Source: an uncultured Gammaproteobacteria bacterium (GTDB lineage Bacteria > Pseudomonadota > Gammaproteobacteria > Steroidobacterales > Steroidobacteraceae). Taken from it: DNA of 64,000 nt. Each line of letters opens with the position of its first letter. Position 1 is the first letter of the stretch. This document shows, in pieces, positions 12,129 to 31,662 of the stretch. The translations under genes were made by a program, and so were the position numbers. The stretch covers positions 3,355 through 67,354 of the forward strand of contig CAVUSC010000001.1 of assembly GCA_963743995.1 (NCBI GenBank). The letters run 5' to 3'. The notes below the pieces were generated by a model that saw nothing but the letters and a program-made list of their open reading frames with translations, was not told the origin of the DNA and did no database searches.

Positions 12129-12181
12129 CCTCGGCGGCGCGTCAATGGCCGTGCGCAGAATTGTTACGAGCCTTGCGTTCG

Positions 12182-13705: not shown

Positions 13706-13818
13706 GCTCCGGGCTTGCCGGATCGCGGGCCGGGGCCGTCCGCCGCATGGACGCGGCGGCCGGAGCCCCCATGGAAGGGTTTACGGCGTCCCCGGCCGGG
13801 ATCCGGCAAGTCCGGAGC
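13706..13818 (+). repeat. REP/MITE-like structured element, copy 2
   Basis: Arms GCTCCGGGCTTGCCGGATC.. / ..GATCCGGCAAGTCCGGAGC differ from copy 1 but are self-complementary. Same core in the same orientation. Confidence 0.75.
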
Positions 13819-13937
13819 ACCGATGCCTTGTCACTGCGGTCGCACGGCCGGCAATCGACTTGGCATGCAACACTGGTTTTACCCCAGGCGCCCGGAGCGG
13901 GTACAATGCCGCGCTTCCTTTCGCTCCGGGTCGCCCA

Positions 13938-15407
13938 ATGCTGCGAATTCTCGAGGAAGCCCTCACCTTCGACGACGTCCTGCTCGTGCCGGCCTATTCC
14001 GAGGTCCTGCCAGCAGAGGTCAGCCTGTCGACGCAACTGACGCGCGGCATCAGGCTGAACCTGCCCGTCGTTTCGGCCGCGATGGACACCGTCACCGAGC
14101 ACCGCCTCGCGATTTCCATCGCGCAGGAGGGCGGCATCGGCATCCTGCACAAGAACATGACCATCGAGTCGCAGGCTCGCGAAGTCGCGCGCGTGAAGCG
14201 ATTCGAGAGCGGCATCATCCACGATCCGATCACGGTGCGACCCGAGCAGACAATCCGCGAAGTGCTCGAGCTCACGCGCTCGAAGAATATTTCCGGCGTG
14301 CCGGTCGTGCGCGACGGCAAGGCCGTCGGCATCGTCACCCACCGCGACCTTCGCTTCGAGACACGCTACGACGCGCCGGTTTCCGCCGTGATGACGCCGC
14401 GCGAGCGCCTCATCACCGTGCGCGAAGGCGCGCCGAAGGATGACGTGCTGATGCTGCTGCACAAGCACCGCATCGAGAAGGTCCTCGTCGTCGGCGACGA
14501 TTTCCAGCTGAAAGGCATGATCACGGTCAAGGATTTCCAGAAGGCGACCGAGTTCCCGCGCGCCTGCAAGGACGAGCGTGGCGCATTGCGCGTCGGCGCC
14601 GCCGTCGGCACCGGTGCCGACACGCTCGATCGTGCGGCGGCGCTGCGGGAAAGCGGCGTCGACGTCATCGTCGTCGACACGGCCCACGGCCACAGCCGCG
14701 GCGTGATCGAGACGGTCAGGCGCATCAAGGCGAAGTGGCCGAACCAGCAGGTCATTGCCGGCAATATCGTCACCGCCGAGGGTGCGATGGCGTTGATCGA
14801 CGCCGGCGCCGATGCCGTCAAGGTCGGCATCGGTCCCGGCTCGATCTGCACCACCCGTATCGTCGCCGGCGTCGGCGTGCCGCAGATTTCTGCGGTGGCG
14901 AACGTGGCTGCCGCGCTGGCGCCGCACGGCATTCCGCTGATTGCTGACGGTGGCATTCGCTTCTCCGGCGACGTAGCCAAGGCCATCGTCGCGGGCGCGC
15001 ACTGCGTGATGATGGGTGGCCTGTTCGCCGGCACCGAGGAATCGCCGGGCGAAGTCGAGCTGTACCAGGGTGCCTCGTACAAGTCGTATCGCGGCATGGG
15101 TTCGCTCGGCGCGATGGCGCAGTCGAACGGTTCGCGCGACCGCTACTTCCAGGACGCCTCTGCTGAAATCGAGAAGCTCGTGCCGGAAGGCGTCGAAGGC
15201 CGCGTGCCGTACAAGGGCAGCATCGTCGCGATCCTGCACCAGCTTGCAGGCGGCCTGCGCGCGGCGATGGGTTACACCGGCAGTGCGAACATCGACGAGA
15301 TGCGCACGCAGCCCAGGTTCGTGCGGATCACCAGCGCGGGCGTGCGCGAGAGCCACGTCCACGACGTGACCATCACCAAGGAAGCCCCGAATTACCGTGT
15401 CAGCTGA
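13938..15407 (+). CDS. guaB: IMP dehydrogenase
   Basis: [21 protein letters not shown] pair, catalytic loop [22 protein letters not shown] at 13938 lies inside the longer ORF. Confidence 0.95.
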
Positions 15408-17007
15408 GCAAGCGTCTGCGGCGGCGGTGCGCCCGGCAGACATCCACGCGCACCGCATCCTGATCCTCGATTTCGGGGCCCAGTACACCCAGTTGATCGC
15501 ACGACGCGTCCGTGAGTGCGGCGTCTACTGCGAGATCCATCCGTGGGACATGAGTGACGCCGACGTGCGCGCGTTCGGTGCACGCGGCATCATCCTCTCC
15601 GGCGGTCCCGAGTCCGTGACGGATGTCGAGCCGCCAAAGGCGCCGCACGCCGTGTTCGAGGCGGGAGTGCCCGTGCTCGGCATCTGCTACGGCATGCAGA
15701 CGATGGCGCAGCAGCTCGGCGGCCGTGTCAGCGGCTCAGATCACCGCGAGTTCGGCTATGCGCAGGTAACCGTGACGGCGCCATGCCGACTGCTCGATGG
15801 ATTGTTCGATCACCGCGACCCGCAGGGACGGGCGGTGCTCGACGTCTGGATGAGCCACGGCGATCGTGTCGAGGCACTGCCGGCCGGCTTCGTGCCTGTC
15901 GGTGCCTCGGCGAACGCGCCGCTCGCGGCCATGGCCGATGAAGCGCGCAGTTACTACGCTGTCCAGTTCCACCCCGAAGTGACCCACACCCTGCAGGGAG
16001 GGCGGATGCTCGAACGCTTCGTGCGCGAGATCTGCGCGTGCGAGGCGCGCTGGGAGCCGGGCAACATCATTGCCGACGCGGTCGCGCGCGTGCGCGAGCA
16101 GGTGGGCAGCGACAAGGTGCTGCTGGGCCTGTCGGGCGGCGTGGATTCGTCGGTGGTGGCGGCGCTGCTGCATAGCGCGATTGGCGACCAGCTGGTCTGC
16201 GTGTTCGTCGACCATGGCCTGCTGCGTGCCGGCGAGGGCGACCAGGTCATGAAGATGCTCGGCGAGAACATGGGGGTGAAGATCATCCGTGTGAATGCCG
16301 AGGAACGCTTCCTCGACGCGCTGCGCGGCGAGTCAGATCCCGAGCGCAAGCGCAAGATCATCGGGCGGATGTTCATCGAGGTGTTCGACGAAGAGTCGAA
16401 CAGGCTCGAAGGCGTACGCTGGCTGGCGCAGGGCACGATCTATCCCGACGTGATCGAATCCGCGGGCGCAAAGACGGGCAAGGCGCACGTGATCAAGTCG
16501 CACCACAACGTGGGCGGCCTGCCCGAGCACATGAAGCTCAAGCTGGTCGAGCCGCTGCGCGAGCTGTTCAAGGACGAGGTGCGGCGCCTCGGCCTCGAGC
16601 TCGGCTTGCCGCGCTCGATGGTGTTCCGCCATCCGTTCCCGGGTCCGGGCCTCGGCGTGCGCATCCTCGGCGAAGTGTCGAAGCAGTATGCCGACCTGCT
16701 GCGCAAGGCCGACAGGATCTTCATCGACGAGCTGCACGCACACGGACTCTACGACGCGACCAGCCAGGCATTCGCGGTGTTCCTGCCGGTGCGTTCGGTC
16801 GCGGTGATGGGCGACGGCCGTCGGTACGACTACGTGATCGCGTTGCGCGCGGTCGAGACGGTCGACTTCATGACGGCCCGCTGGGCACGCCTGCCCTACG
16901 AGTTCCTCGAACTCTGCTCACGCCGCATCATCAACGAGGTGGCCGGCATCTCGCGGGTCACGTACGACATCTCGAGCAAGCCGCCTGCGACGATCGAGTG
17001 GGAGTGA
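15397..17007 (+). CDS. guaA: GMP synthase (glutamine-hydrolysing)
   Basis: GATase domain ([24 protein letters not shown]), PP-loop SGGVDSSV, C-terminus [12 protein letters not shown] start overlaps the guaB end by 11 nt. Confidence 0.95.
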
Positions 17008-17009
17008 GG
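16993..17009 (+). repeat. att-like direct repeat, copy 1 (last codons and stop of guaA)
   Basis: ATCGAGTGGGAGTGAGG. Identical at 18406-18422, 1 mismatch at 20445-20461. Confidence 0.8.
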
Positions 17010-17120
17010 GGCCGCCCTCCAGTGTGCGCCTCAGATGCAAGAAGTTCAGCGGTCGGATTCCGGGAACATTCGACCGATACCTTCGCCGTGCTTGGGCACC
17101 AGCGAACTGGCAGCGGCAGC

Positions 17121-17252
17121 TTACGAGTAGCAAAGGCACGCGCCCCAAGTGACTTTCGACCGATCGCCTCCATCGCGATCGATCATACAGTCCACGAAGG
17201 CGCGCAGCGCGGGTTGAACATGGCGACGGCTCGGATAGTAGAGTGCACCTGA
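17121..17252 (-). pseudogene. C-terminal remnant of a LysR-type regulator
   Basis: ..ALYYPSRRHVQPALRAFVDCMID.. is a typical LysR C-terminal signature. Homology stops exactly where the IS91 fragment begins. Confidence 0.5.
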
Positions 17253-17257
17253 CGAGG

Positions 17258-17506
17258 TTAAACGCCGTGTTCGCCCCGCACAGCAAGCTACGTGCAGTGG
17301 TGCCGCCCGCGCACCGGGGCGTGGGTGCGGCGAAGCAGCAGACCGCGGATGCGGCCACGACCGCGACGCCCCGACATGTGGCGATGAACTGGGCGCGGCG
17401 CCTGAAGCGTGTGTTTGGCGTCGAGATCGAGGACTGTGCCCGTTGCGGCGGGAAGCTTGCGATCCTTGCCAGTATCGAGGAGCCAGAGGTGATCGCGAGG
17501 ATCCTG
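17258..17506 (+). mobile_element. IS91-family (Y2) transposase, C-terminal fragment
   Basis: LNAVFAPHSKLRAVVPPA..HVAMNWARRLKRVFGVEIEDCARCGGKLAILASIEEPEVIARIL matches the conserved IS91-family C-terminus. No catalytic core is present. Confidence 0.65.
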
Positions 17507-17599
17507 CGTACCGCAATGAAATCTGTCGCGTGGTTTACCTGCTATCGATGGTGCTCACTCACGGTGAGAAGAAATCCAGATTCATAAACCTTCTGCCCG

Positions 17600-17893
17600 T
17601 CAAGCCGCAGCGCTTTCGCGCTGGGAGATGGGCCGTACCTTGCCACGGAACTTCTTCTTCGCCTGCCACAGGTCGTAGTTGACCTGCATGCCGTACCAGA
17701 ACTCCGGTGACGTGCCGAGCGCCTTGGACAGACGTATGGCCATCTCCGGGCTGATGCCGGTGGCACCATTCAACAGGCGCGAGAGCGCCACACGGCCCAC
17801 GCCCAGGCGCTTGGCTGCATCGGTCACGCTGATTTCGCTCAGGGCTTCCCTGAGCACTTCGCCGGGGTGGCAGGGGTTGTGCATCTGGCTCAT
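17600..17893 (-). CDS. higA: HigA-family antitoxin (XRE HTH)
   Basis: [52 protein letters not shown]. Downstream of and adjacent to higB. Confidence 0.85.
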
Positions 17894-17903
17894 GTCGGCT
17901 CTC

Positions 17904-18185
17904 CTAGTGATAGTCCTCGTAATCGAGCAGCACGACGTCTGTGCCCTCGAAGATGAAAGTCAGTCGCCAGTTGCCGTTGACCGTGATGGACCAGCGGCCA
18001 GCTTGACTGCCCTTCAGCTCATGCAAGCGCCAGCTCGGGATCGCCGCGAGGTCCTGTGGTTGCGTCGCAGCATCCAGGGCGGTCAGTTGAGAGCGCAGCT
18101 TCTTGTCGTGCTTTGGCTGAATGCCAGCCTTCAAGCCCGTGCGGTAGAAGCGCTCAAGCCCGTCGTGCCGGAATGACTTGATCAC
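17904..18185 (-). CDS. higB: HigB-type toxin (RelE/ParE superfamily, plasmid maintenance system killer)
   Basis: [51 protein letters not shown]. Toxin-first operon order. Confidence 0.85.
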
Positions 18186-18193
18186 GGTGCAGT

Positions 18194-18210
18194 GTATCCT
18201 GATAGGATAC
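18194..18210. promoter_or_regulatory. inverted repeat, candidate HigA operator of higBA-1
   Basis: GTATCCT-GAT-AGGATAC, 9 nt upstream of the higB start. Confidence 0.5.
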
Positions 18211-18405
18211 GGGTTGTAAGGTCGATGCCGCGGGCGAGAGGACCGGCCATTAGTTCAACGTCTTGCGGGTCGATTTCCGGGCGTTCGGCCTCTGTCGGCA
18301 TGCTGCACCACCAAGCGGAATGATTCGACGGTCAGTCTGACGGTAAAGTCACGCCGCCCTCACGAGAATTCCAGCAGCGGCGGCAAGTTGCGGGGCTTGA
18401 AGATT

Positions 18406-18422
18406 ATCGAGTGGGAGTGAGG
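18406..18422 (+). repeat. att-like direct repeat, copy 2
   Basis: ATCGAGTGGGAGTGAGG, exact copy of the guaA end. Confidence 0.8.
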
Positions 18423-18668
18423 AGGCGATCCGCTTCATGATGCGCTGGCGCGCTGGTAGATCCAGCTCGGGATTCCGGGAGGAAGCGGGTCAAACTCGAC
18501 CTGCGGTTTGTCTTTCGTCGGCAAGAGTCGCTCACAGTGACAGAATCGCGGGATTCGCAAACCGATTCGGTCCAGCATTTCTGCTCGAACACGCCAGGAT
18601 TGTGCAGTCCGCTCGAGCCTGTCGCGCCCTAGTCTGTTGCGTCCCCGCCCGATGCAGGGACGCCTGCG

Positions 18669-19025
18669 GTGTCCGCAGCTACCCGACCGCAGCCGATTCG
18701 TGCGCCGCCGTTTCTCGACCCTCCGGGCTACGCCCGGCATCGCCCCGAAGCCACTCCGCTGTATCGGCTGGTGGAGCAGCACTATCCCGCCTTTCGTGCG
18801 CTTAGATCCGAGGCAGGTCGGCCGCTGCCGGATTACATCGAGCAGGAGTTCGATGCGTACCTGAAGTGCGGCCGCTTGGAAGAAGGCTTCCTGCGTCTGT
18901 GCTGCGAGGACTGCCACGCCGAGAAGGTCGTCGCATTCAGCTGTAAGAAGCGCGGATTCTGCCCCTCCTGTGGTGCGCGTCGCATGGCCGAGACCGCGGC
19001 GCTGCTGGCCGATGAGGTGCTGCCG
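18669..19025 (+). mobile_element. IS91-family transposase, N-terminal zinc-binding fragment
   Basis: PLYRLVEQHYPAFRAL..YLKCGRLEEGFLRLCCEDCHAEKVVAFSCKKRGFCPSCGARRMAETAALLADEVLP. Homology ends at about 19025. Confidence 0.7.
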
Positions 19026-19190
19026 CACCCCCGACCTCCGTACACGACAACTTCCGCATGCCGGAGGATCGTTCCCGGGCGTAGACGGTCCTTTTTCGGG
19101 TGAGTGAACCGGGCGAGCGAGATACGCTCGAGCCGTGCCCAGGGGGTGCGGGGGAGCTTGGGAAGGAGTCGAAGGCATAGGAGTCGCATA

Positions 19191-19254
19191 GTCACGCTTG
19201 CCGTTAGTCACGCTTGCCGTTAGTCACGCTTGCCGCTAATCACGCGAGGCGTTA
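19191..19254 (+). repeat. 16-bp tandem direct repeat, three good copies plus one degenerate
   Basis: GTCACGCTTGCCGTTA x2, GTCACGCTTGCCGCTA, ATCACGCGAGGCGTTA. Ends 10 nt before the higB-2 ATG. Confidence 0.85.
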
Positions 19255-19263
19255 ATATCGGGC

Positions 19264-19542
19264 ATGATCCGATCGTTCAAGTGCCCGGACACCGAGACGC
19301 TCTCGAAAGGAATCCGGGTCAAGCGGTTCGTGAACATCGAGGCGGTCGCCCGGCGCAAGCTGAGGCAGCTTGAGATCGCTGCCCGCCTGGACGATCTGAA
19401 AATACCTCCGGGCAATCGACTCGAAGCCTTGAAAGGCCGACGAGCCGGTCAGTACAGCATCCGGATCAACGATCAGTGGAGAGTCTGCTTTCGCTGGACG
19501 CAGGCCGGTGCGCTCGATGTCGAGATCATCGATTATCACTAG
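19264..19542 (+). CDS. higB: HigB-type toxin, second copy
   Basis: MIRSFKCPDTETL..LEALKGRRAGQYSIRINDQWRVCFRW..VEIIDYH. Confidence 0.85.
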   Translation: MIRSFKCPDTETLSKGIRVKRFVNIEAVARRKLRQLEIAARLDDLKIPPGNRLEALKGRRAGQYSIRINDQWRVCFRWTQAGALDVEIIDYH

Positions 19543-19554
19543 GGTGAAGTCATC

Positions 19555-19893
19555 ATGAGCAACCTGAACGCAATTACGCCCGGTGAGCTCCTGCTGGAGG
19601 AGTTCCTGGCGCCCATGGGCATCAGTCAGTATCGACTGGCCAAGGAGATTGATGTTCCGGCGCAGCGAATCAGCGAGATCGTCGCGGGAAAGCGCGCCAT
19701 CACCGCCGATACCGACCTGCGGCTCTGCCGGTTCTTCGGCCTGTCCAGCGGCTACTGGTTGCGTGCCCAGGCGGCACACGACACGGAAGTGGCCGAGCGC
19801 AAGCTGGCGCCAGTACTGCTGCGCATCAGGCCGTGGGCGACAAAGACTGCTCGACAAGGCGCTGCAGCGGACGCGGCGACGCGGCGGCGCTGA
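19555..19893 (+). CDS. higA: HigA-family antitoxin, second copy
   Basis: ITPGELLLEEFLAPMGISQYRLAKEIDVPAQRISEIVAGKRAITADTDLRLCRFFGLSSGYW. Confidence 0.85.
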   Translation: MSNLNAITPGELLLEEFLAPMGISQYRLAKEIDVPAQRISEIVAGKRAITADTDLRLCRFFGLSSGYWLRAQAAHDTEVAERKLAPVLLRIRPWATKTARQGAAADAATRRR

Positions 19894-19909
19894 TCACCGG
19901 TGTAAACAG

Positions 19910-19944
19910 GCGTGCAATTCTGACCGATGGTCAGAATTGCACGC
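19910..19944 (+). terminator. perfect hairpin after higA-2
   Basis: GCGTGCAATTCTGAC-CGATG-GTCAGAATTGCACGC (15-bp stem). No clear T-tract. Confidence 0.5.
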
Positions 19945-20060
19945 CCGTCCACAGCCTGACCGACCTGCGGACGTCCCGTCGCCAGGCCGCTTCGTCCGGC
20001 AAGGTGTGGGAAATGCTACCCGGCAGTCTCACGCCGTGTGATCGGTGTGGGCACACGGCA

Positions 20061-20126
20061 GGCTTCGACTCACCATACGGCCGGAAACGCGAATCGGTTC
20101 GGCCGCAGCAGGTGCTTTGAAATTCC
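20061..20126 (+). repeat. island-internal repeat family, copy A
   Basis: GGCTTCGACTCACCATACGGCCGG..CGAATCGGTT..GCAGGTGCTTTGAAATTCC. Related to 21217-21294 and 26272-26312. Confidence 0.6.
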
Positions 20127-20150
20127 TATCCCCCCGCCTCCACTAATAAT

Positions 20151-20168
20151 GTAGCTACCAGTAGCTAC
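20151..20168. promoter_or_regulatory. two 8-bp palindromes 10 bp apart, candidate operator of the phd-vapC remnant
   Basis: GTAGCTAC-CA-GTAGCTAC, immediately upstream of the ATG at 20170/20179. Confidence 0.45.
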
Positions 20169-20178
20169 GATGATTCCC

Positions 20179-20340
20179 ATGAAAACCGTCGGCGTCCGTG
20201 ACCTCAAGAACAAGCTGAGCGAATATCTTCGCGGCGTGCGGCTGGGAGAGAGCGTCCTGGTTACCGATTGGGGATAAGTCCTGGCGGAGCTCCTGCCACC
20301 CGGGCAAGGCCAGCGCGCGGCAGCCATTTCCCGGCGACCC
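20179..20340 (+). pseudogene. Phd/YefM-type antitoxin interrupted by an in-frame TAA
   Basis: MKTVGVRDLKNKLSEYLRGVRLGESVLVTDWG-stop(20275-20277)-VLAELLPPGQ.. The family sequence continues in frame after the stop. Confidence 0.6.
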
Positions 20341-20341
20341 G

Positions 20342-20449
20342 ATTCGACCCCTCGATGCCATCCACCTCGCATCGCTTGACGGCAAATATGGCGACCGCCG
20401 CCAGGAAGCAACGAACTTTCAAGTGCTTACGGACGTTGAGAACAATTGA
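20342..20449 (+). pseudogene. C-terminal remnant of a PIN-domain (VapC-like) toxin
   Basis: RPLDAIHLASL.. resembles the distal acidic motif of VapC. Only 35 codons remain; the stop lies inside att-like copy 3. Confidence 0.4.
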
Positions 20450-20461
20450 GTGGGAGTGAGG
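20445..20461 (+). repeat. att-like direct repeat, copy 3
   Basis: ATTGAGTGGGAGTGAGG, 16/17 identical to the guaA end. The upstream ACAAT also echoes guaA ACGAT. Confidence 0.8.
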
Positions 20462-20697
20462 AGCATTGCTCAGGTCACGGTACTACACATGTTCAATGCT
20501 GAAGGAGTGCCACCCAGGGTGCCGCGTGGCGATTCCGGGAAAATGCATCCGAAACGCGAAAGGTGGTTTACGCGTCGACGAAGCCACTCACCCGCGGTGA
20601 CTGCAACGCGAGTTTCGTAAACCACGTCCGACCGTGGCGGTGCACGGCGTTCGGCGGCCGAGCGGGCCCTCCGCCCGTGCGAGCATCTCAGGCCGCG

Positions 20698-21090
20698 TTA
20701 CCCGCGGGCGCGGGCGATGCGCTCCGCGTCGACCAGACCGCCTCCGAGCGTGGTGCGCAGCGCCTGCTTGTGGTGGTCCATCGCGGCGCGCACCGCGTCG
20801 ATCCGTGCATCTGCCTCCGGCCCGCGCCGGCCCGGGATCCGCGACTGCATCTCCTCCAGCGACACGCGGTGCGCCTCGAGGAATGCCCGACCTTCCGCCG
20901 TGACCTCGTGGAGCCTGCGCTGCTCGGCATCGATCGTGGTGCGGACCTGCCCGAGGTCCTCGAGCAGCACCAGGCGCAGGTCACCGCGACCGAAGTACCG
21001 ACCGCTGCAGCCACCACGACCGCGTCCGGGACCGTCGCCCCCTTAGCCGCCAGGACCACGACTGCCAGGGCCGACAGGACCGCCGTGACG
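20698..21090 (-). pseudogene. PadR-family regulator remnant (internal deletion, in-frame stop, no start)
   Basis: Gly/Arg-rich leader with TAA, then GRGDLRLVLL fused directly to EDLGQVRTTIDAEQRRLHEVTAEGRAFLEAH. The winged-helix core is missing. Confidence 0.45.
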
Positions 21091-21216
21091 GCCTTGGCCG
21101 CCCGGGCTCCGGCCGGTTCAGGTTTCTCCTCCAGCCCCTATCTTCCGACGTCCGCTGGCATTCCGGCGGGGCCTATCGGCCGCGACGGACCTGCCAGGCA
21201 AGCGCTGTCGAAAGCA

Positions 21217-21294
21217 GGCCTCGGCTCACCATACGGCTGGCTAAACGAATCGGTTCCGCGGATCGGCTCGGCCAGGGCAGTTGCTTGAATTTCC
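21217..21294 (+). repeat. island-internal repeat family, copy B
   Basis: GGCCTCGGCTCACCATACGGCTGG..CGAATCGGTT..GGCAGTTGCTTGAATTTCC. Confidence 0.6.
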
Positions 21295-21424
21295 TCTCCG
21301 CCATTGACGCACGCTATGGAAAACCGCCGCCGGGTCAAAAACACTGCTTGCTTTGCTTGCGAAGTCGGCGGGAATATGCGCGGAAAAGTAGAACGACTGT
21401 ACAACTCAGGTGGAGGAGCTACGC

Positions 21425-22624
21425 ATGGCAAGGTATCTACCGCACCGCGCCCTTGTGGCAGCGGCGCTTGCACTCTTTTCAGTCGCCGAAGCGCGGGCTG
21501 CAGGGGCGAGCAGCCAGCCGGTCGTCCTGCTGGAAATTACCGCGCCCCGCACCCTCAAGCTGCTGTCGCCGCCAATCGAGATGAGTTCCGGCTGGCCACT
21601 CAAGTTCCGAGCCACGGCTTTCAACAGCCTTGGGCTCGCGCTGGACACAGGTTTGCCGGAATATCCGATCCTGGGCAGCGAAGGCTACGTGGTCCTCAAG
21701 GATCCAGACGGCTGCCTCGAAATTCCGCCGCCTAGCGCGGCCACCCGCAACCCCCTCTGTGTCGACACGCCGACGGACGAGACGTACATCATTTTCCATG
21801 CGGATGTGGACCAGGCCGGTGTCCCGGACAATGTCGGCGACGCCGCGCGTGGCGCGGCACTTGCAGATCCGACAGTCAGCGGCGAACCACTGTTCAATTC
21901 GCGCACCGACGATGATCCCGTGATCGTCGAAGCGATACCTGTCGGCCCGGTAACTGGCGGCAACGTCGCCGACGGCTACGGCTACGGCGCGGACGACGAT
22001 TGGGCGAGCCTGGTCGTGCTGGTCCCGCACGGCAACGGCCTGGTGCTTGGTGCGGATTTTTCCCGACCGTCGGTACTGACCCAGCGCAACCTCGCCGGCT
22101 TCCTGAACTGGTCCGCGTACGAGCTGAGTGACCTCCTGGGTGGCGTCGCCGTCGAGGGCGGCATGATCGTGCCCTATGGCCTGGTCGCCCCGATGATGCT
22201 GGCAGACGACTGTGGAGGTGCGACGAACGGCTCAGTGTGCGAGGGGCAATCGAGCTACCGGATCGACGGCGGCCCCGTGGTCTTGTCCGCCAGGACCGGG
22301 GGCATCGGCAACGCGCAATTCACCTACCCGGCTCTGGTGGGCGCGACGCGCTTTGAAGTCCGCGCCTTTGTCGTGAGCGGTGTCGCACCATCGCAACTCA
22401 GGGATGAGAACGGTGATGGCAAGGTGACGGCGGCGGATGCCAAGCTCGCTGGCCACACGGTGGTTTCCAACGAGGTCGTGGTCCAGTTGCGCCAATACCA
22501 TGGCGACCCCTGCGGCGTCGGGCTCGCAAACGTCGTGCGCGGAGATCTCGACGGAAACAATTACGCACTCAGTAGCTTCGTGTGTCCTGCCGGTCCGGGC
22601 CAGATCAAGAAGCCGCCGCAATGA
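21425..22624 (+). CDS. secreted protein of unknown function with Asp-rich calcium-binding-like loops
   Basis: GGAGGAG 7 nt before ATG 21425. Signal peptide MARYLPHRALVAAALALFSVAEARA. DENGDGKVTAADA and GDLDGNN loops. No family recognised. Confidence 0.7.
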   Translation: MARYLPHRALVAAALALFSVAEARAAGASSQPVVLLEITAPRTLKLLSPPIEMSSGWPLKFRATAFNSLGLALDTGLPEYPILGSEGYVVLKDPDGCLEIPPPSAATRNPLCVDTPTDETYIIFHADVDQAGVPDNVGDAARGAALADPTVSGEPLFNSRTDDDPVIVEAIPVGPVTGGNVADGYGYGADDDWASLVVLVPHGNGLVLGADFSRPSVLTQRNLAGFLNWSAYELSDLLGGVAVEGGMIVPYGLVAPMMLADDCGGATNGSVCEGQSSYRIDGGPVVLSARTGGIGNAQFTYPALVGATRFEVRAFVVSGVAPSQLRDENGDGKVTAADAKLAGHTVVSNEVVVQLRQYHGDPCGVGLANVVRGDLDGNNYALSSFVCPAGPGQIKKPPQ

Positions 22625-22643
22625 CGCCAATGCTCGCCGCGGT

Positions 22644-24854
22644 TCAGAGCGCGGCGAGCACTTCCGCAGCCTGGCGGCGCGACGGTTCGAGATTCAACTG
22701 GAGGCTCGCGGGTTCCGGCATTGCGATCGCTTCCCGTGCGATCCGCTTCGCTTCGCGCTGCTCACCGTTTGCGGCCAACGCCCGGGCGAGGCCAGAACGG
22801 TAGATCTCGTACTCGGACCCGGGCATTTCGACCGCTGCCCGCATCGATACGACGGCAGCGGCCGAGTCGCCCTGCGCAATCAGCATCAGGCCTTCGAGGT
22901 ACTTGGCGGCCTTGAGGGCAGCAGGCAGCGACTGGTCCGGATCGCGTGACAACGCGCGCAATTCGCCGATCGTCCGCGTTACTGCCTCGTAGTCGCTGGA
23001 CCTCAATTCCGCGCGGCCGCGGGTGTACAGGTACCTGGTCGGTTTTCCGACCGCCTTCTCGATCGCAATCGACGCCAGTTCACGTGCGCCCGCGGCATCG
23101 CCCGCATCGAGCCGGCAGCCCGCTCGGATCGACAAGGCATAGGACTCGCGGACCTGCTCGGCGGCTATGTCGGCGGCCAGGCCAGTGAGCAACGTCTCGG
23201 CTTGTGGGCATCGCTGCTCGGCGCGGAGCAGTTCCGCTGCATTGAGTGCCGCGCTGATCCGCGAATCCGGAGGCAACGACGTTGATTCCGCGTCGGCAAC
23301 CAGGCGGGCGATGGCGTCCTCCGGGCGCCCGCGCAGTACGTCGACCTGTGCCAGGCGCAGCGTGGCATCGGAAAATGCCGGATCGATTTCGAGCACTCTT
23401 TGATACGCCGGTACTGCCTCGTCGAACAGCTTGCGGTAGAACTTGGAGTCCCCGACGAGGTAATGCGCATTCGGATTGTCGGGCGAAAGCGCAAGGAACT
23501 TCGCCAGGGGCTCGTCGGCTGCGTCGTAGCGACCAAGCTTGAGATTGATGTCCGCCATGCTGCTCCAGGCCACCTCGTCGCCCGGGTCCTGCGCAGCGAG
23601 GGTCTCGGCTTCCACCAGGGCCTCCTCCATTCGTTCCTGGTCCATCAGCACGTAGAGCAGCAGCAGGCGCGCCTCTGTTTCGTACGGGTGCTTGACCAGC
23701 AGTTCCTTGTACTGCTTCTCCGCGGCCGGATAGTCGCGAGCAAAGTAGCTCGCCCCGGCGTCGATGTAGGCGCGATCGCGCGCCGGCAGGCGATAGGCAT
23801 CCTTTTGCGCCTTGCGCACCTGTTCCAGCGCCGCCTCAGTATCTCCCTGCGACGCCAGCGTGTGTGCGAGCCGGTAGCGAGCCATCGCAAAGTCGGGCGC
23901 CTTCTGCACCGCTACTTCGAAACCGCGGCGCGCGTCCGCGTAGTTGAAGTGCAGGAAATTCTCCATCCCGGCGACAAATGCCTCGTAGGCGGCCATGTTG
24001 CGGGTGGCGAAATCGGCGGCAAAGACATCGATCTTCTCGGTGCCTGGCAGGCCGAGGCTCTGCTTGATCAGCGAGGCGACCGCCGTCGACACGGTCAGGA
24101 TCGCATCGGGTTCCAGGCCCTCGCGGCGATTCGCCCCGATCTCGACATTGCGACGCAGATCGGTCAGCCGCGACGTGATGGTGAGTCCGCCGGGGGTCCG
24201 CAGGATCTCCCCGCTCAGCACGTGCGTGATGCCGCTGTCCGCGGCTGTTGAAAACATCGTATCGAGGTCCCGGGAGTCGTCCTTGAGCCGCATCGTGCGC
24301 GCCGCGGAGACCACGGCCAGGTAGCGCGACTGCGCCAGGTCGTCGCGCACCAGGTTGGCCAGTCCAGGTCCCGCCCAGTCCAGTTCGCGCCTTCCGGTCA
24401 GATTCTCAAGCGGCAGGACGGCGACGATCGGCAGTTCGTCCGGGCGCAGCTGCCGCGTGAATTCCGTTTCGCCCGAGGTCGACAGGCCCGCCGTCCACAA
24501 CCACGCGGCGCCGCCGATGATGGCGGCCATGGCGGGCGCGGCAATCAATGGCCGAATCCACCAGCGGCTCGGCCTTGGAGCGGGTGGAGGTGGTGCGTCA
24601 ACGCCTGGGGTGACACTGATGCCTCGCGGCGTGACATCGAACACCCAAGCCAGCACGATGGCGACCGGGAAGCCGGCGAAGGCCGCCACGAGCAAGGCGC
24701 GCATCGCCCAGGCAGGTGCGCCGAAGGCGGGCAACGCGATCGAGGCGGCCTGCACGACCGCCCAGGCGACCACCGCATAGATGGCTCCCGTGCGAAAAAT
24801 CTCGCGGCGTTTCAGGTCCTGCCAGAGGTTCTTGAGACGGTTGCGTCGTTCCAC
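22644..24854 (-). CDS. membrane-anchored TPR-repeat protein with TolB-like N-terminal module
   Basis: LKRREIFRTGAIYAVVAWAVVQ TM motif, PIVAVLPLENLTG module, then many TPR repeats. Start uncertain: GTG 24854 chosen, no good SD. Confidence 0.7.
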   Translation of the reverse strand: MERRNRLKNLWQDLKRREIFRTGAIYAVVAWAVVQAASIALPAFGAPAWAMRALLVAAFAGFPVAIVLAWVFDVTPRGISVTPGVDAPPPPAPRPSRWWIRPLIAAPAMAAIIGGAAWLWTAGLSTSGETEFTRQLRPDELPIVAVLPLENLTGRRELDWAGPGLANLVRDDLAQSRYLAVVSAARTMRLKDDSRDLDTMFSTAADSGITHVLSGEILRTPGGLTITSRLTDLRRNVEIGANRREGLEPDAILTVSTAVASLIKQSLGLPGTEKIDVFAADFATRNMAAYEAFVAGMENFLHFNYADARRGFEVAVQKAPDFAMARYRLAHTLASQGDTEAALEQVRKAQKDAYRLPARDRAYIDAGASYFARDYPAAEKQYKELLVKHPYETEARLLLLYVLMDQERMEEALVEAETLAAQDPGDEVAWSSMADINLKLGRYDAADEPLAKFLALSPDNPNAHYLVGDSKFYRKLFDEAVPAYQRVLEIDPAFSDATLRLAQVDVLRGRPEDAIARLVADAESTSLPPDSRISAALNAAELLRAEQRCPQAETLLTGLAADIAAEQVRESYALSIRAGCRLDAGDAAGARELASIAIEKAVGKPTRYLYTRGRAELRSSDYEAVTRTIGELRALSRDPDQSLPAALKAAKYLEGLMLIAQGDSAAAVVSMRAAVEMPGSEYEIYRSGLARALAANGEQREAKRIAREAIAMPEPASLQLNLEPSRRQAAEVLAAL

Positions 24855-25187
24855 GGATCGGCAGTATATGCGGTGCGGCGCACGGTGCTCGTTGCAAGTT
24901 CGCCTTGCGCGCCCTGCGGCGGATTCTGCGGTCCGGCGATGGCCGCGGGCGCACAGCCATCGGCTGGAGACAAGGAGAGTGTCCCCAAGGGTCTCCAGGA
25001 GGCGGTTTAGCTTTTCGTTTTTCCTGGGTCTCCCATGGTGACTTAAATTGGCAGTCCGCAAACCACTGGCAAACTGAGGTTCATGGGATGTGATCTACAG
25101 TCACTACGAACCCGTATCAGCCTCCGTGCCGCCCGGGTCCGCGGCGTCGCGGCACACGGGCGGCAGGTGACGCGCTTCTTCCGACCG

Positions 25188-26000
25188 TTACTTCGTGTCT
25201 TTCCGGCGCATCATTGCCCAGATCAAGGCGATGATGATGACCAGCACGAGCAGGAAGAGCGGGCTCTTGAAGAAAGATTTCGGCGTCTCAGGCGCCGGTG
25301 CCGTTGCTTCCGGCGCCGGTGCGGGCGTCGCTGGTTCCATGGCTACCGGCTCAGGCGCCGGTTCCATGGCCGGTTCTGCGACCGGTTCTGCGGCTGGAGT
25401 TTCGGCTGCGACCGGTTCCGGCTCCGGAGCCGATGCAGCAGCGGTTGGCGCGGGCTCGGCCGCGAGCGTGGCATCCACGGCCGTCGACGTGAGGATCTCC
25501 GGCTTGCTCTCGGTCACGATGGTCGCGCTGATCTTGTCGCCCGGGTTCAGCTGAGAAACCTGGATCGGCGTGTCACCCGAGTACAGGCGGATACCGCGCT
25601 TGTCGATTTCACTCTGCGTGAATTTATGAATCCTGCCGTCGGGGTCCTTGATCTGGATCGAGCGCGCGGTCTGATGAGTCACGGTACCCGTCTTGATGGT
25701 CGTGACGTAGACCGGCATCTGGGTCGTCGTGGTGGTGACCACCGCCGTGCCTTTCATGCCGGCGTGAAGGTCGCTGACCGCCAGCGATTTACCGTCCACC
25801 GTGAACTTGAAGTCCGGCGGTACGGTCAGTGCGCGCGTTCCAAGCTGGTCGCGCACGACCAGGTCGTTGCCGTCGACTGCAATGATCTCGAAGTTGCTCG
25901 CTCGGTTGGTGACGGTCGTTTGTGCATATGTCGCGACCGGGCTCAAGAGCGCGAGCGCGAGCAGCATTGAGAGGCCACCAGTCAGCTTGAACTTGTGCAT
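25188..26000 (-). CDS. secreted protein with Pro/Ala/Glu-rich linker and C-terminal TM anchor, unknown function
   Basis: Signal peptide ..PVATYAQ, two beta-rich repeats, (EPAP)n-like linker, C-terminal PLFLLVLVIIIALIWAMMRRK. Confidence 0.7.
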   Translation of the reverse strand: MHKFKLTGGLSMLLALALLSPVATYAQTTVTNRASNFEIIAVDGNDLVVRDQLGTRALTVPPDFKFTVDGKSLAVSDLHAGMKGTAVVTTTTTQMPVYVTTIKTGTVTHQTARSIQIKDPDGRIHKFTQSEIDKRGIRLYSGDTPIQVSQLNPGDKISATIVTESKPEILTSTAVDATLAAEPAPTAAASAPEPEPVAAETPAAEPVAEPAMEPAPEPVAMEPATPAPAPEATAPAPETPKSFFKSPLFLLVLVIIIALIWAMMRRKDTK

Positions 26001-26271
26001 ATCGTCTCCCTGGTTGCTTTCCTATCGCTCCGTCGACCGGAACGCATGGGCGAATCCGGTAATTTGCCGTGAGTGCCAAGGGTTATGTTAACCCGATTTA
26101 GCGCGCCTACAAGTGGTCGCCACCGCCTCGCTGGTGGCCGGGCTGGCAGGATTCCAGAACTGCTGGTCAGGCAGGTGCGCGACCGAAACTGCGTCCGGCC
26201 GAGCCCCCTGCCTGCCTGACTTGCCGGACGAGGGTGGCTGGCGGCAGGTGCGGGCGCGACCTAGGGCCGGT

Positions 26272-26312
26272 CAAGCGAATCGCCTCAGTCGGGGCAGGTG
26301 CTTTGAATTTCC
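26272..26312 (+). repeat. island-internal repeat family, copy C (shorter)
   Basis: CAAGCGAATCGCC..GGGGCAGGTGCTTTGAATTTCC. Confidence 0.5.
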
Positions 26313-26499
26313 CAGCCGTCCGCAATATTCACGGGCTCTACTGGATTGCTCCTGCGATGGATGACTATCAGTCTGGGCCTGAAGCGACTCCTCTGAGTTG
26401 TCTCGGCATATAAGGGTTATCGTCGGTGAACCTGACGGTAGAATCGGCGCGCCCGGCCAGAAGCAACCTGCTTGCAAGTGTTCCAGGATGACCGAGAGG

Positions 26500-26516
26500 A
26501 TTGCATGGGAGTGAGA
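26500..26516 (+). repeat. degenerate att-like copy 4 (possible right boundary of the guaA island)
   Basis: ATTGCATGGGAGTGAGA, 14/17 to the repeat. A second partial match, ATTGAGTGG, lies at 26539-26547. Confidence 0.35.
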
Positions 26517-28157
26517 CTCCTCACGTCGTTCCTGCGTTCATTGAGTGGTCCGGGCCTGGTGCTCGGGACCCTGTTCTTTGCAGCAGCACTGACGCCCAGC
26601 CTCGTGCCGCGGGCCGCTCACTTCCAGGGATTGATCAGCGGCTTGAGCCTCGCCGCCGGCTACGGCATCGGTGTGCTCGGCGTGCTGGCCTGGCGCGCGC
26701 TGCAACTGCCGCGCGCCTCGGGGCGGGTCCTGGAGTGGGGCCGGCTCGTAGCGCTCGTCATCTGTATTGGCGCTGCAGGTTTTGCCCTGGCGCGGGCCAA
26801 GGACTGGCAGAACACGCTTCGTGCGCTGATGGGCATGGAGCCGATTCCTGGCGTCGGGGTGTTCACGATCGCGTTCGTCGCGCTGGCTGTTTTCGTGCTG
26901 CTGTTGCTGCTGGTCCGCGCTTTTCGCAGTACACGGCGTGCGATCGCGCGGCGCCTGGACCCGGTGCTGCCCGGCCCGGTGGCCGTGACGAGCGGGCTGG
27001 TAGTGACTGCGTTGCTGTTCTATTGGATTGGTACTGGCGTGATTCTCGATCGAGTGATGCGGGCTCTCGACGCCACCTACGCCGAGTTGGACGCTCTGCT
27101 CGAGGATGACAGCCCGCAGCCGAGCGATTGGCACAAGCCGGGCGCGCCCGAGTCGCTGCTGGATTGGCAGCAACTGGGGCGGGCCGGCCGTCGGATGGTT
27201 GCGGCGACGCCGGATCGCGCCCTGATCGAAGCGATGACCGGCGGGCAGGCGCTCGAGCCACTGCGCGTCTACGTCGGTCTGAACTCGGCTGAGACGGTCG
27301 AGGAGCGCGCGCGCCTGGCACTGGCCGAGATGTTGCGCATCGGTGCGTTCGAGCGCTCGACGGTCGTGATCGCCACGCCGACGGGAACCGGCTGGATCGA
27401 CCCGGAAAGCCAGGCCGCGCTGGAGTACCTGATGCGTGGCGACGTGGCGACCGTGGCGGTCCAGTACTCGTACCTGCCGAGTTGGCTGGCCCTGCTGGCC
27501 GAGTCTGCCTATGGGGTCGACACGTCGCGCGCGGTGTTTGCGGCGATCTACGCGCACTGGCGCAGCCTGCCGCAGGCGACGCGTCCCCGGTTGTACCTGC
27601 ACGGCCTGAGCCTCGGATCGCTCAATTCAGACTTGTCGCACGACTTGTACCAGGTGCTCGGTGACCCCTACCACGGCGCCTTCTGGGTCGGACCGCCGTT
27701 CTCGAGCAGCACCTGGCGGCATGTCACGTCGCAGCGCAATGCCGGTACGCCCGCGTGGCTGCCCGAATACCGCGACGGTTCCACGATCCGCTTCACCGCG
27801 CAGGAGAACCGCCTTGCTCGGGCGGCGGCACCGTGGGGGCCGTACCGGATCGTGTACCTGCAGTACGCGAGCGATGCCGTGACCTTCTTCGAGCCGCGTT
27901 CGATCTGGCGCCGGCCGGAGTGGTTGCAGGCACCGCTCGGCCCCGACGTCACGCCAGACTTCAAGTGGATTCCGGTGGTCACGTCGGTGCAGTTGTCGAT
28001 CGACTTGATGCTGGCCACGACGACTCCGCGCGGCTACGGCCATTCCTACGCCTTCGAGCATTACCTCGACGGCTGGCTGGGTCTGACCGATGCGCCGGGC
28101 TGGACTCCTGCAACCATCGCCGCGCTGAAGGCTCGATTTGCCGCGCAGCGGCTCTGA
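26505..28157 (+). CDS. membrane-bound alpha/beta-hydrolase family protein (Abhydrolase_9-like)
   Basis: GAGAGGA SD before ATG 26505. Multi-TM N-terminal half, then a hydrolase half with the GLSLGS elbow. Confidence 0.75.
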   Translation: MGVRLLTSFLRSLSGPGLVLGTLFFAAALTPSLVPRAAHFQGLISGLSLAAGYGIGVLGVLAWRALQLPRASGRVLEWGRLVALVICIGAAGFALARAKDWQNTLRALMGMEPIPGVGVFTIAFVALAVFVLLLLLVRAFRSTRRAIARRLDPVLPGPVAVTSGLVVTALLFYWIGTGVILDRVMRALDATYAELDALLEDDSPQPSDWHKPGAPESLLDWQQLGRAGRRMVAATPDRALIEAMTGGQALEPLRVYVGLNSAETVEERARLALAEMLRIGAFERSTVVIATPTGTGWIDPESQAALEYLMRGDVATVAVQYSYLPSWLALLAESAYGVDTSRAVFAAIYAHWRSLPQATRPRLYLHGLSLGSLNSDLSHDLYQVLGDPYHGAFWVGPPFSSSTWRHVTSQRNAGTPAWLPEYRDGSTIRFTAQENRLARAAAPWGPYRIVYLQYASDAVTFFEPRSIWRRPEWLQAPLGPDVTPDFKWIPVVTSVQLSIDLMLATTTPRGYGHSYAFEHYLDGWLGLTDAPGWTPATIAALKARFAAQRL

Positions 28158-28262
28158 CCGATCGGTGCGCGGGTGCGCGGTCGGCTCTTGCAAGGCGAGG
28201 TCGTCACGACACGCCTGACGACTGCGATAAGCTACGGCGAGTTCGTGTTCGGAGTCCGGCCC

Positions 28263-28736
28263 ATGCTATCCAGACGACTGCTGGCATCCAGCCGGTACGT
28301 AGCATTGATCGCTGTTGTCGGCTCCCTGGTGGGGTCGGTCGCGTTGTTGGTCTACGAAGCCTTCGTGATCATCGAAGCGGTGATCGAGACAGCCAGCAGC
28401 GACAGCCTGTCGCCGAAGATCGCCAAGGTGCTGGCGGTGGGGTTGATCGAGGCACTCGACATCTTCCTTATCGCTATCGTGGCGCAGATCATCGGCCTGG
28501 GGCTTTATGTGCTGTTCATCGACGAAACGCTGCCGTTGCCGGCGTGGCTGAAGATCAGCAACCTGGATGACCTCAAGAGCCACCTCGTCAGCAGCGTCAT
28601 CGCCGTGCTGGCGGTGTTGTTCATGCGCGAGGCGGTCGCCTGGGACGGCGAGCGCGATCTGCTTGGCTTCGGCGTCGCGCTGGCGCTGGTCATCGCCGTG
28701 CTCACGTTGTACCTGATGGTCAAGGGCAAGCGCTGA
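28263..28736 (+). CDS. YqhA-family (UPF0114) inner membrane protein
   Basis: SSRYVALIAVVGSLVGSVALLVYE.., 3-4 TM helices, about 157 aa. Confidence 0.7.
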   Translation: MLSRRLLASSRYVALIAVVGSLVGSVALLVYEAFVIIEAVIETASSDSLSPKIAKVLAVGLIEALDIFLIAIVAQIIGLGLYVLFIDETLPLPAWLKISNLDDLKSHLVSSVIAVLAVLFMREAVAWDGERDLLGFGVALALVIAVLTLYLMVKGKR

Positions 28737-28754
28737 TCGAGCCTACGCGGCACT

Positions 28755-29570
28755 TCAACCCGCAGCAGTTCGCTGATCCGGAACCACGATTTTCGCCGTG
28801 TCCGCAGTCGGCAGTTTCACCGTCGGAATGGCGTCGGTGTTGCGGATCACCTGGCGCTGCGGCAGATAATCCAGCAGCAGATCGGTCTCCTTCCTGACCA
28901 CCTCGTAACACTCGCAACACAAGGCTTCGAGTTGCGGCCGGTCCAGCACCGTGATCAAGCCGCGCTTGTAGGAAATCACCCCCAGTTGCTGAAGTCTCGA
29001 CGCGGACTGGGTCACCCCTTCGCGGCGGACTCCGATCATGTTGCCGATGAACTCCTGGGTCATCGTCAGGCGGCTGCCCTCCAGGCGATCCATCGACAGC
29101 AGCAGCCAGCGACACAACTGCTGGTCGATGGAATGATGCCGGTTGCAGACTGCGGTCTGGGCAATCTGCGTGATCAGGGCCTGCGTGTAGCGCAGCATCA
29201 GCACCAGCAATTGTCCGTGGCGGTTGAACTCCTCTTTCACCCGCTTCCTGGGCAGGCGATAGGCGTAGCCGGCGCTTTGCACCAGCGAACGGTTCGGCGT
29301 GCTTTCCCCACCCATGAACAACGTGATGCCCATAAGCCCTTCGTTGCCCACGACCAGTATCGCGGTCGACGCGCCGTTCTCCATCATGTACTGCAGCGAG
29401 ATGATGGAATCGGTCGGAAAATAGACGTGCCGCATGGCACGGCCGGATTCATACATCACGGATCGCAGTGGCAGCGGCACCAGCTCCAGGTACGGGAACA
29501 GGCGGCCTTGTACCTCGGGGGACAGGGCAGCGAGGAGGTGATTCTGTTGGGGCTCGTGCTTGGCAGGCAT
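28755..29570 (-). CDS. Crp/Fnr-family transcriptional regulator
   Basis: N-terminal cNMP-binding-like beta-roll (VYFPTDSIISL), C-terminal HTH TQEFIGNMIGVRREGVTQSASRLQQLGVI. Confidence 0.85.
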   Translation of the reverse strand: MPAKHEPQQNHLLAALSPEVQGRLFPYLELVPLPLRSVMYESGRAMRHVYFPTDSIISLQYMMENGASTAILVVGNEGLMGITLFMGGESTPNRSLVQSAGYAYRLPRKRVKEEFNRHGQLLVLMLRYTQALITQIAQTAVCNRHHSIDQQLCRWLLLSMDRLEGSRLTMTQEFIGNMIGVRREGVTQSASRLQQLGVISYKRGLITVLDRPQLEALCCECYEVVRKETDLLLDYLPQRQVIRNTDAIPTVKLPTADTAKIVVPDQRTAAG

Positions 29571-29721
29571 TTGGCATTTCGGCTTTGGGGTCGTTGGCTA
29601 CCAGCATAACCGTCGAGCTTCAGGGGTTCCGTACGGTGACGTACCCAGGGCGAGCGGCGCCGCCGCTGGAAGAGACTTTCAAATCAGGGCCAACTCCGGC
29701 CCAACGGTACGCGAGCACGCT

Positions 29722-31329: not shown

Positions 31330-31617
31330 TGGCTCGGCGGCAAGCGTTGGAACAGAACTTTACGTCGTTCCAGGTGCGGGCCCAGCGGCGACGCCAGGTC
31401 ATCGGGCGGCCGCAGGCCACGCAGGGCTTGCTGGGCAGGGCGGCTTTGTTGCCGCGGAATCCGGAGGTGGGCGGTGTCATCGACAATGCGCCAGGGCTGC
31501 AATTGCGTCGCGGCTGGATGGTCGAGCGTTCATGTTACCGGGGTTGAATTCAATGGCGAGTCATCCACAGGCAGCGTCGGCCATACTACGAGTTGCTCCC
31601 GCGATTCAGTTCCACCG

Positions 31618-31631: not shown

Positions 31632-31662
31632 ATGAGCCGTTGATGATCGAGTATGAATGAGC

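Follow-up and report, generated by a model that had tools for sequence, protein, structure and literature searches.

Probable stack of decayed, integrase-less elements at the guaA 3′ end of an uncultured soil gammaproteobacterium

The window analyzed here is a 64,000-nucleotide (nt) stretch of contig CAVUSC010000001.1 (GCA_963743995.1; positions 3,355 to 67,354, forward strand) from a host that GuaA comparisons identify as a Steroidobacteraceae-like soil gammaproteobacterium. In it, the 3′ end of guaA, the gene for GMP synthase, is followed by repeats of the gene's own last bases, treated below as candidate attachment (att) sites, with relics, toxin–antitoxin pairs and other genes between them (Table 1). 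The tadA and mltF-like genes, the ancestral right-hand neighbours of guaA, lie beyond the array, and the guaB-guaA synteny upstream of it is shared with relatives.

Exact-protein look-ups of GuaA and the Abhydrolase_9 protein yielded no record. Loci for comparison (L numbers) came from two sources, namely a survey set of 160 guaA-anchored loci from species-representative genomes and Joint Genome Institute (JGI) metagenomes, in which relatives are at most 82% identical, and a large protein search that supplied the close relatives for the empty-site comparison. The closest of these, L175 (GuaA 95% identical; 90.3% nucleotide identity over guaB-guaA), aligns with window positions 13728-17008 and resumes at 31686-33078, so that the window holds 14,677 extra bases (17009-31685). 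L175 has an empty site, with the guaA stop followed by 26 nt, tadA and then mltF. A second relative, L182 (GuaA 89% identical), is also empty, and four others are filled in other ways, all without an integrase: by ∼2.3 kb in L178 (90%), ∼5 kb in L179 (89%), ∼3.8 kb in L181 (90%) and, in L180 (92%), by a 2.4-kb unit that holds only a transporter gene and ends at a second copy of the guaA end, ATTGAATGGGAGTGA. None of these six relatives carries a repeat-bounded block as invariant sequence. Across the survey set, guaA is followed by tadA in 72 of the 160 loci, with smallest gaps of 12 nt.

The repeated sequence is a 17-mer made of the last guaA codons (IEWE), the stop and two bases more. A guaA 3′ end with the 8-nt core found here is the attB of the genomic island GIsul2 (PMC9376610; PMC5704250), and islands of this type are thus documented at this gene end, as an earlier reading of the DNA without database searches (the sequence-only reading) had noted. 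Exact cores occur in the 64 kb at 16996, 18409 and 20448 only, with decayed cores at 26503 and 31649. At ≤3 mismatches, 0.22 matches to the 17-mer are expected by chance, and none of 100 shuffles gave three; a search of both strands at this threshold found no strong copy outside the guaA-tadA interval, and all copies lie on the plus strand. An independent repeat grouping placed five copies in one family (16989, 18402, 20441, 26496 and 31642, the last spanning 31642-31661). We further scanned all 128,000 window positions (both strands) with a position weight matrix (PWM) trained only on seven att sites from other genomes and GIsul2, window sites excluded. Its top five positions are exactly the five sites (36.3, 22.7, 21.1, 14.7, and 6.0), and in the null, ten shuffles, the highest score over the whole window lay between 2.4 and 15.7.

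Similarity to guaA is confined to the 17-mer itself, and the downstream copies have foreign left arms. Those of copies 2 (gcttgaagattatcGAGTGGGAgtgaggagg), 3 (cgttgagaacaattGAGTGGGAgtgaggagc) and 5 are unlike guaA coding sequence and like the element-side arms of the sites at L107, L027, L063, L053 and in GIsul2. Copies 2 and 3 form a 37-nt repeat family with 76% identity, and the left arm of copy 3 is like those of copy 2 and of GIsul2 attLR and attR. The probability that the repeats arose without a mobile element, by coincidence, as a dispersed genomic repeat or through local slippage duplicating the guaA end, is negligible. Duplications of another kind do occur, as the long duplication of the guaA 3′ end (≥49 nt) 1.1 kb downstream in L032 illustrates; the shuffles, the restriction of the copies to one interval and strand of the 64 kb, the foreign arms and the empty site of the closest relative all speak against such an origin. 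For copies 1-3, chance or a dispersed repeat is ruled out by the shuffles, the 64-kb search and the arms. The L032 duplicate (Pseudomonas entomophila, 11567-12745) contains its second guaA-end copy within a stretch that is ∼92% identical, a pattern distinct from the 17-nt core repeats.

Identity to the 17-mer falls outward from guaA, from 17/17 and 16/17 to 13-14/17 at 26500 and 13/17 at 31646. The 26500 site is a weak candidate for a decayed boundary. Its sequence, ATTGCATGGGAGTGAGA at 26500-26516, matches the T variant of the 17-mer at 14/17 positions and the guaA form at 13/17, and agrees with the attR of L107 at 20 of 24 positions when judged by eye. The 10-mer TGGGAGTGAG at 26506 and the 9-mer ATTGAGTGG at 26540, of which 0.31 are expected per window, stand 40 nt apart on one strand; this second half-copy and the agreement with L107 lend the site some support. 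At the outer end, ATCGAGTATGAATGA (31646-31660) translates as IEYE and a stop, 27 nt before the tadA start. The left arm of this fifth copy, CGTTGATGAT, is foreign to guaA, agrees with the element-side arm CGTTGATAAT of L063 and resembles that of L053; the arm-only PWM score of the 31649 site lies in the top 0.02% of window positions. Because shuffle maxima reach 15.7, the weight of copy 5 comes from its position and its arm, which support reading it as the displaced, decaying original guaA end, lying where that end should have been pushed.

Most of what the sequence-only reading had said about the repeats held: the exact second copy and the near-copy at 20445-20461 (one mismatch) were confirmed, and its own worry that the 17-mer might be a dispersed repeat found no footing, with strong copies confined to the guaA-tadA interval. 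Its fourth copy at 14/17 stands against the T variant and drops to 13/17 against the guaA form, the additional 9-mer is present one base off its reported place, and the array, which it had ended at 26547, runs on to the decayed guaA end before tadA, a fifth copy that it had missed.

Table 1. Features of the guaA-tadA interval and its borders (window coordinates)
Feature	Coordinates	Strand	Evidence and remarks
guaA (GMP synthase), target gene	15397..17007	+	Open reading frame (ORF); 95% identical to P0121; guaB-guaA synteny in relatives
att copy 1 (attL)	16993..17009	+	ATCGAGTGGGAGTGAGG; core GAGTGGGA at 16996-17003, same as published GIsul2 core (PMC9376610)
Unit 1	17010-18405		Flanked by 17/17 copies
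LysR C-terminus-like relic, about 25-45 codons	17124..17258	-	Pfam LysR_substrate 184-206 of 209, E 0.076, weak
C-terminal relic, ISCR2-like rcr (IS91-family, Y2-type)	17240..17506	+	50% to Rcr2 residues 379/380-466; no Pfam match
higA-1	17600-17893	-	Pfam HTH_3; pair with higB-1 apparently intact
higB-1	17904-18185	-	Pfam HigB-like_toxin 1-91 of 91
att copy 2	18406..18422	+	Exact 17-mer; PWM 36.3, best in window
Unit 2	18423-20444		Between 17/17 and 16/17 copies
N-terminal relic, ISCR2-like rcr	18669..19103	+	Pfam Zn_Tnp_IS91; 66% to Rcr2 residues 14-116
higBA-2 module	19065..19902	+	Three 16-nt iterons before higB-2, 19189-19252; higB-2 19264-19542; higA-2 19555-19893; Pfam
phd fragment	20170-20265	+	Pfam PhdYeFM_antitox 1-30 of 74, E 2.3e-4, weak
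Possible vapC C-terminal relic	within 20170..20447	+	Sequence reading; no Pfam match; stop overlaps att copy 3
att copy 3	20445..20461	+	ATTGAGTGGGAGTGAGG, 16/17; PWM 22.7
Unit 3	20462..26499		Between copy 3 and decayed copy 4
PadR-like relic	20698-20970	-	No Pfam match
Secreted-looking 404-amino acid (aa) ORF	21410-22624	+	ORF
TPR protein	22644-25061	-	Pfam
270-aa ORF	25188-26000	-	ORF
att copy 4, probable, decayed	26500..26548	+	ATTGCATGGGAGTGAGA at 26500-26516 and ATTGAGTGG at 26540-26548; weak
Unit 4 cargo	26505..31329		Missing from empty-site relatives
Abhydrolase_9 membrane protein	ends 28157	+	Pfam
UPF0114	28173-28736	+	Pfam
Crp-like regulator	28755-29570	-	Pfam
Photolyase-related DPRP protein	29722-31329	-	Pfam
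att copy 5 (outermost attR)	31646..31662	+	ATCGAGTATGAATGAGC; PWM 14.7, fourth in window
tadA	31688-32155	+	Pfam; ancestral right-hand neighbour of guaA
mltF-like gene	32152-33579	-	Pfam; ancestral right-hand neighbour

The ORFs of the intervals were typed by Pfam, and fragments were compared with Rcr2 of ISCR2. No Phage_integrase domain and no replication, mobilization or transfer gene was found by Pfam among the interval ORFs, and tblastn of two integrases over the whole 64 kb, L068 (P4-type) and L056, both guaA-adjacent and used in place of the GIsul2 integrase (Int), gave a best E of 0.2. This agrees with the earlier statement that no recombinase gene is left.

Units 1 and 2 hold pieces of an rcr gene, split between them. 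The N-terminal piece of 103 aa, in unit 2, has homology spanning 18717-19025 that then breaks off; the C-terminal piece, in unit 1, covers 88 aa; and the catalytic middle is missing. The fragments are closest to ISCR2 and ISCR16, and plasmid searches with the rcr fragment led to ISCR16 regions. By these comparisons the IS91 pieces are specifically ISCR2-like, that is, of common region (CR) type, an identity of some consequence, as the guaA-island integrase is known to move CR2 units. Copy 2 lies ∼260 nt upstream of the rcr start-equivalent, its right side starts GGGAGTGA, and copy 3 stands at the far end of the cargo, so that unit 2 appears, from its sequence, to have the layout of a CR unit: att, rcr, cargo, att. 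An alignment of the att-to-rcr spacer with that of L072 revealed no homology beyond the core and the coding sequence.

Relatives of the N-terminal piece are themselves short. The best 120 in the database (P0001-P0120) are 65-94% identical and 108-252 aa long, and none is full length. We considered a conserved short isoform and dropped it, as truncation points differ in an alignment of the relatives from long contigs; the short proteins are therefore independent wrecks. The CR lineage of the window seems to consist mostly of such wrecks in soil metagenomes, and contig breaks in repeats may have produced part of them.

Both higB/higA pairs have open, full-length and adjacent frames (HigB-like_toxin E 3e-22 and 1.5e-17; partners HTH_3). 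An exact HigB-1 with its 97-aa HTH neighbour was found on another contig, and exact HigB-2 on 18 contigs. The left edge of the higBA-2 module is the point of rcr truncation. The module acts as a discrete unit and shares 88% nucleotide identity over 840 nt with L172 and L173, where the context is not guaA and att sites are lacking. In these two loci (L172 1034-2716; L173 364-2035) a pair resembling higBA-1 comes after higBA-2, and both toxin–antitoxin types of the window thus travel together there. A palindrome with 25-nt arms follows higBA-2 (19901-19953).

Both pairs had been named by the sequence-only reading and were borne out by Pfam. Its two IS91 fragments also held, the N-terminal one by Pfam and the C-terminal one, which has no Pfam match, by 50% identity to Rcr2 residues 380-466. 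Its LysR C-terminus is weakly supported; of its phd/vapC wreck the phd part is weakly supported and the vapC part has no Pfam match; its PadR wreck has none either; and one of its "three unknown genes" in unit 3 is the TPR protein.

The genes of unit 3 have no homologues in the 160 guaA loci. A repeat of ∼80-100 nt occurs in three copies (20056-20137, 21214-21295, and 26242-26323; 71-83% identity), all in the inserted region and each upstream of a plus-strand gene, namely the phd relic, the 404-aa ORF and the Abhydrolase_9 gene. Att copies 3 and 4 each have one of these repeat copies upstream, at a distance of roughly 180-390 nt. No further copy was present in the window or any fetched locus, and the repeat has no Rfam match.

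The outer cargo bears on a second explanation, in which only 17010-20444 is att-bounded and the 11 kb from 20462 to 31685 are a variable region swapped by homologous recombination in the guaA and tadA flanks, the matches at 26500 and 31646 being coincidental. Units 3 and 4 and the fills of L178, L179, and L181 consist of ordinary genes without mobility genes, the guaA-tadA interval of L179 has no att-like site, copy 4 falls inside the shuffle range, and copy 5 reaches 13/17, all as this explanation would have it. Copy 5, however, is placed as the original guaA end would be, 27 nt before tadA compared to 26 nt in L175, and reads IEYE-stop; its arm CGTTGATGAT matches CGTTGATAAT of L063; TGGGAGTGAG and ATTGAGTGG lie on the same strand at the short distance given above; and L180 has an ordinary transporter gene between two guaA-end copies. 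The displaced end at 31646 and L180 argue that integration built the framework, and we regard exchange by homologous recombination as the origin of the outer 11 kb as unlikely.

Second guaA-end copies are found elsewhere. Roughly eight of the 160 survey loci have one within 10 kb (∼965 kb downstream of guaA in all; ∼1.7 matches expected by chance, extrapolated from the window rate); none of these reaches the three or more copies of the window. The exact 17-mer recurs after 1.39 kb in L063, with a higBA pair as sole content of the unit and with GGCACTGGCTGGCA, the 5′ motif of CR2, right behind guaA, and repeat-bounded units without rcr occur in L027, L107, L114, and L053. Relics of rcr were detected at two of the 160 loci only, both less than 2 kb downstream of guaA: in L072 the gene begins ∼270 nt after the guaA stop, the guaA end itself being the upstream att, and in L078 the relic lies 1.6 kb downstream of guaA. 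The closest rcr relatives on long contigs (L084-L087) have no att motif upstream of rcr, so the link between rcr and att is not universal. A higBA-2-type pair (HigA 69% identical) lies between guaA and tadA in L119.

Three of these loci show further details. L063, a metagenome-assembled genome, has at 11575-12060 clear homology to the element-side arm of GIsul2 attR (ggaaaataagccattgaatataaa...tttacaata), which runs into a degenerate core and then GGGAGTGACGG; it also has several CATGGTAT motifs, present in the GIsul2 arms as well, that may be integrase arm sites. L078 carries a direct repeat of at least ∼33 nt (CCAACAAGGCCACTGCATCAGATGGGATTGAC) at 13455 and 16267, 2.8 kb apart, the first copy just after the rcr C-terminal relic. 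In L119, a long GGGGCC microsatellite (4490-4575) breaks a higB-like gene between guaA and tadA, and many CGTTAATAAC-like iterons upstream are reminiscent of those before higB-2 of the window.

GIsul2 is the nearest known system. Of its three att sites, the middle one (attLR) lies upstream of the rcr2 gene of CR2, and its integrase catalyzes both excision and integration of the CR2-sul2 unit, through recombination of attLR with attR (Zhang et al. 2022, PMC9376610). The window shares with it the target (the last guaA codons), the core GAGTGGGA, more than two att copies per array, a toxin–antitoxin module aboard, and the arrangement of an att whose right side starts GGGAGTGA upstream of ISCR2-type rcr sequence, then cargo and a further att. 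At the level of the sites, copies 2 and 3 have the core, the GTGA after it and parts of the left arm in common with the attLR (cttgtttacaatcGAGTGGGAgtgacggg) and attR (cttgtttacaataGAGTGGGAtaaatgg) of GIsul2 from pSN254, including CTTG..A..AT in the arms. In contrast, the window lacks int, alpA, rep, resG, ars, and sul2, its rcr is 66% and 50% identical to Rcr2 in two pieces split over two units, its att-to-rcr distance is ∼260 nt compared to 115 nt in CR2, and its host is an uncultured soil Steroidobacteraceae-like bacterium rather than a clinical isolate.

A rival origin for the repeats is rolling-circle transposition of an IS91/ISCR-type (rcr) element whose 5′ end (terIS) resembles the guaA end by chance, the copies then marking successive transposition or read-through events and not integrase crossovers. 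Relics of rcr do occur in both young units, with copy 2 upstream of the rcr N-terminus, the proposed terIS of CR2 (GGGAGTGACGGGCACTGGC) starts within the same core (PMC9376610), and the only loci with rcr relics among the 160 carry rcr less than 2 kb after guaA. Nevertheless, guaA-end repeats bound rcr-free units in L027, L053, L107, L114, and L180; copies 3 and 5 are not beside rcr; the repeats of L063, L114, and the window copy the guaA stop and next bases of their own genome and no fixed terIS; and the close rcr relatives L084-L087 lack such a motif upstream. IS91-family elements, moreover, target tetranucleotides. Movement of CR elements has been shown for the integrase and never by rolling circle (PMC9376610). 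While the rcr fragments do belong to the ISCR/IS91 family (Pfam Zn_Tnp_IS91), the window has no intact transposase or recognizable oriIS, and its repeats behave as integrase att sites, not as insertion sequence ends. We consider a rolling-circle origin of the repeats very unlikely.

The 14.7 kb from 17009 to 31685 are most probably a stack of integrase-less, att-flanked elements at the guaA attB, that is, cis-mobilizable elements (CIMEs) as Guedon and colleagues use the term. CIMEs keep attL and attR after losing integration and transfer genes, and their stacking at the att copy of a gene end has been described (PMC5704250); decayed elements in tandem are described as the usual case, the model having been developed in Streptococcus thermophilus, on ICESt1/ICESt3 at fda (Pavlovic et al. 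2004; Bellanger et al. 2011; review PMC5704250). The window likewise keeps flanking att sites while its own integration and transfer genes are gone, and differs in having four units with no functional partner element in view, any present-day mobilization in trans being suggested by analogy with CR2-sul2 only. Other mobilizable elements that target guaA include PIMEs, BcenGI2, the Brucella IncP island, and ATE-1 (bioRxiv 10.64898/2026.01.12.698999; PMC5704250). They too have their attB in or next to the guaA 3′ end, shared by unrelated subfamilies; these elements are complete and carry int, alpA, and mobilization modules, all of them absent from the window.

Under this CIME interpretation, guaA-targeting tyrosine integrases (of GIsul2, PIMEs or relatives) would repeatedly have inserted circular elements into the core GAGTGGGA. 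Every insertion would have brought a new gene end including the stop and moved the earlier end downstream, so that the array would have grown from the guaA side. Selection on the GuaA C-terminus presumably keeps the proximal site a perfect, usable target, and the distal copies would be left to drift. The array could then be read as a stratigraphy, with young units beside guaA, older ones outward and the original chromosomal end at 31646 before tadA, integration and transfer genes having been deleted afterwards. The two youngest units would be of CR type, with the layout of the CR2-sul2 unit moved by the GIsul2 integrase, and their higBA pairs, the only intact genes of units 1 and 2, may have been kept since loss of an addiction module is counter-selected. 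Serial accretion at one attB followed by deletion had been proposed from the sequence, and the empty (L175, L182) or otherwise filled (L178, L179, L180, L181) sites of relatives support it.

Several observations weigh against this interpretation. With no integrase, excisionase, replication or transfer gene present, the agent is inferred wholly from the sites. Two of the copies, 4 and 5, are degenerate: the PWM score of copy 4 (6.0, fifth in the window) is inside the shuffle range, and the best match of one of the ten shuffles scores higher than copy 5 at 13/17. Units 3 and 4 and the fills of the relatives consist of ordinary genes for metabolism and regulation and bear no hallmark of mobile elements; homologous recombination between guaA and tadA, and not integration, could have exchanged all of them. 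The window arms lack the ATGGTAT-type motifs of GIsul2 and L063; the integrase would be related to GIsul2 Int and not identical with it. As higBA-2 also occurs elsewhere without att sites, not every piece came by integration. Finally, some of the small "wrecks" could be assembly artefacts. In the same window, purL (41667-45654) lies in two frames through a single frameshift near 42950; tblastn with Pseudomonas PurL placed the switch from frame 3 to frame 1 at 42947-42961, and the gene is either a pseudogene or carries an assembly indel error there. Assembly indel errors are thus possible, which calls for caution with all small wrecks in the window; such small errors cannot account for the large deletions by which the wrecks are defined.

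A broader view is that the guaA end of soil Gammaproteobacteria serves as a cassette dock, where integrases that target guaA and are encoded at other places would move small att-flanked units without an integrase of their own in trans, and that elements of the CR/ISCR2 clade would then be ancestral passengers of that integrase system and not rolling-circle transposons. Cassette-like examples are a toxin–antitoxin pair alone (unit 1 of the window; L063), a single transporter (L180), and the CR-type units. The rcr relics of L072, L078, and the window all lie less than 2 kb downstream of a guaA end, and two of these three, the window and L072, have an att core ahead of the rcr start. We find this view doubtful, and offer it as speculation.

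The window is a clear but ordinary case of a known process, a decayed CIME stack at a known guaA hotspot. It provides a natural record of one attachment site in an essential gene collecting and then eroding mobile DNA, with att copies that decay in step with distance from guaA. ISCR ("common region") elements carry many resistance genes, and how they move is still debated. Here an ISCR2-like gene again lies behind a guaA-type att, in a lineage from the environment that is far removed from clinical isolates, which fits the 2022 proposal that island integrases move CR units and adds an example to it without settling the question.

GC content at third codon positions (GC3) did not cleanly separate island from core genes among the genes of the window, and an Rfam scan of 16.5-32.5 kb gave no match. 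Beyond the mltF-like gene, some 8 kb of the window (33600-41640) hold an MFS transporter gene (34339-35628), a DAO/GCV_T fusion (35656-38070) and other genes, where L178 and L179 have, at the corresponding place, mltF, an FHA/T6SS_FHA_C gene, DUF1820 and then purL; this stretch may be a second variable spot.

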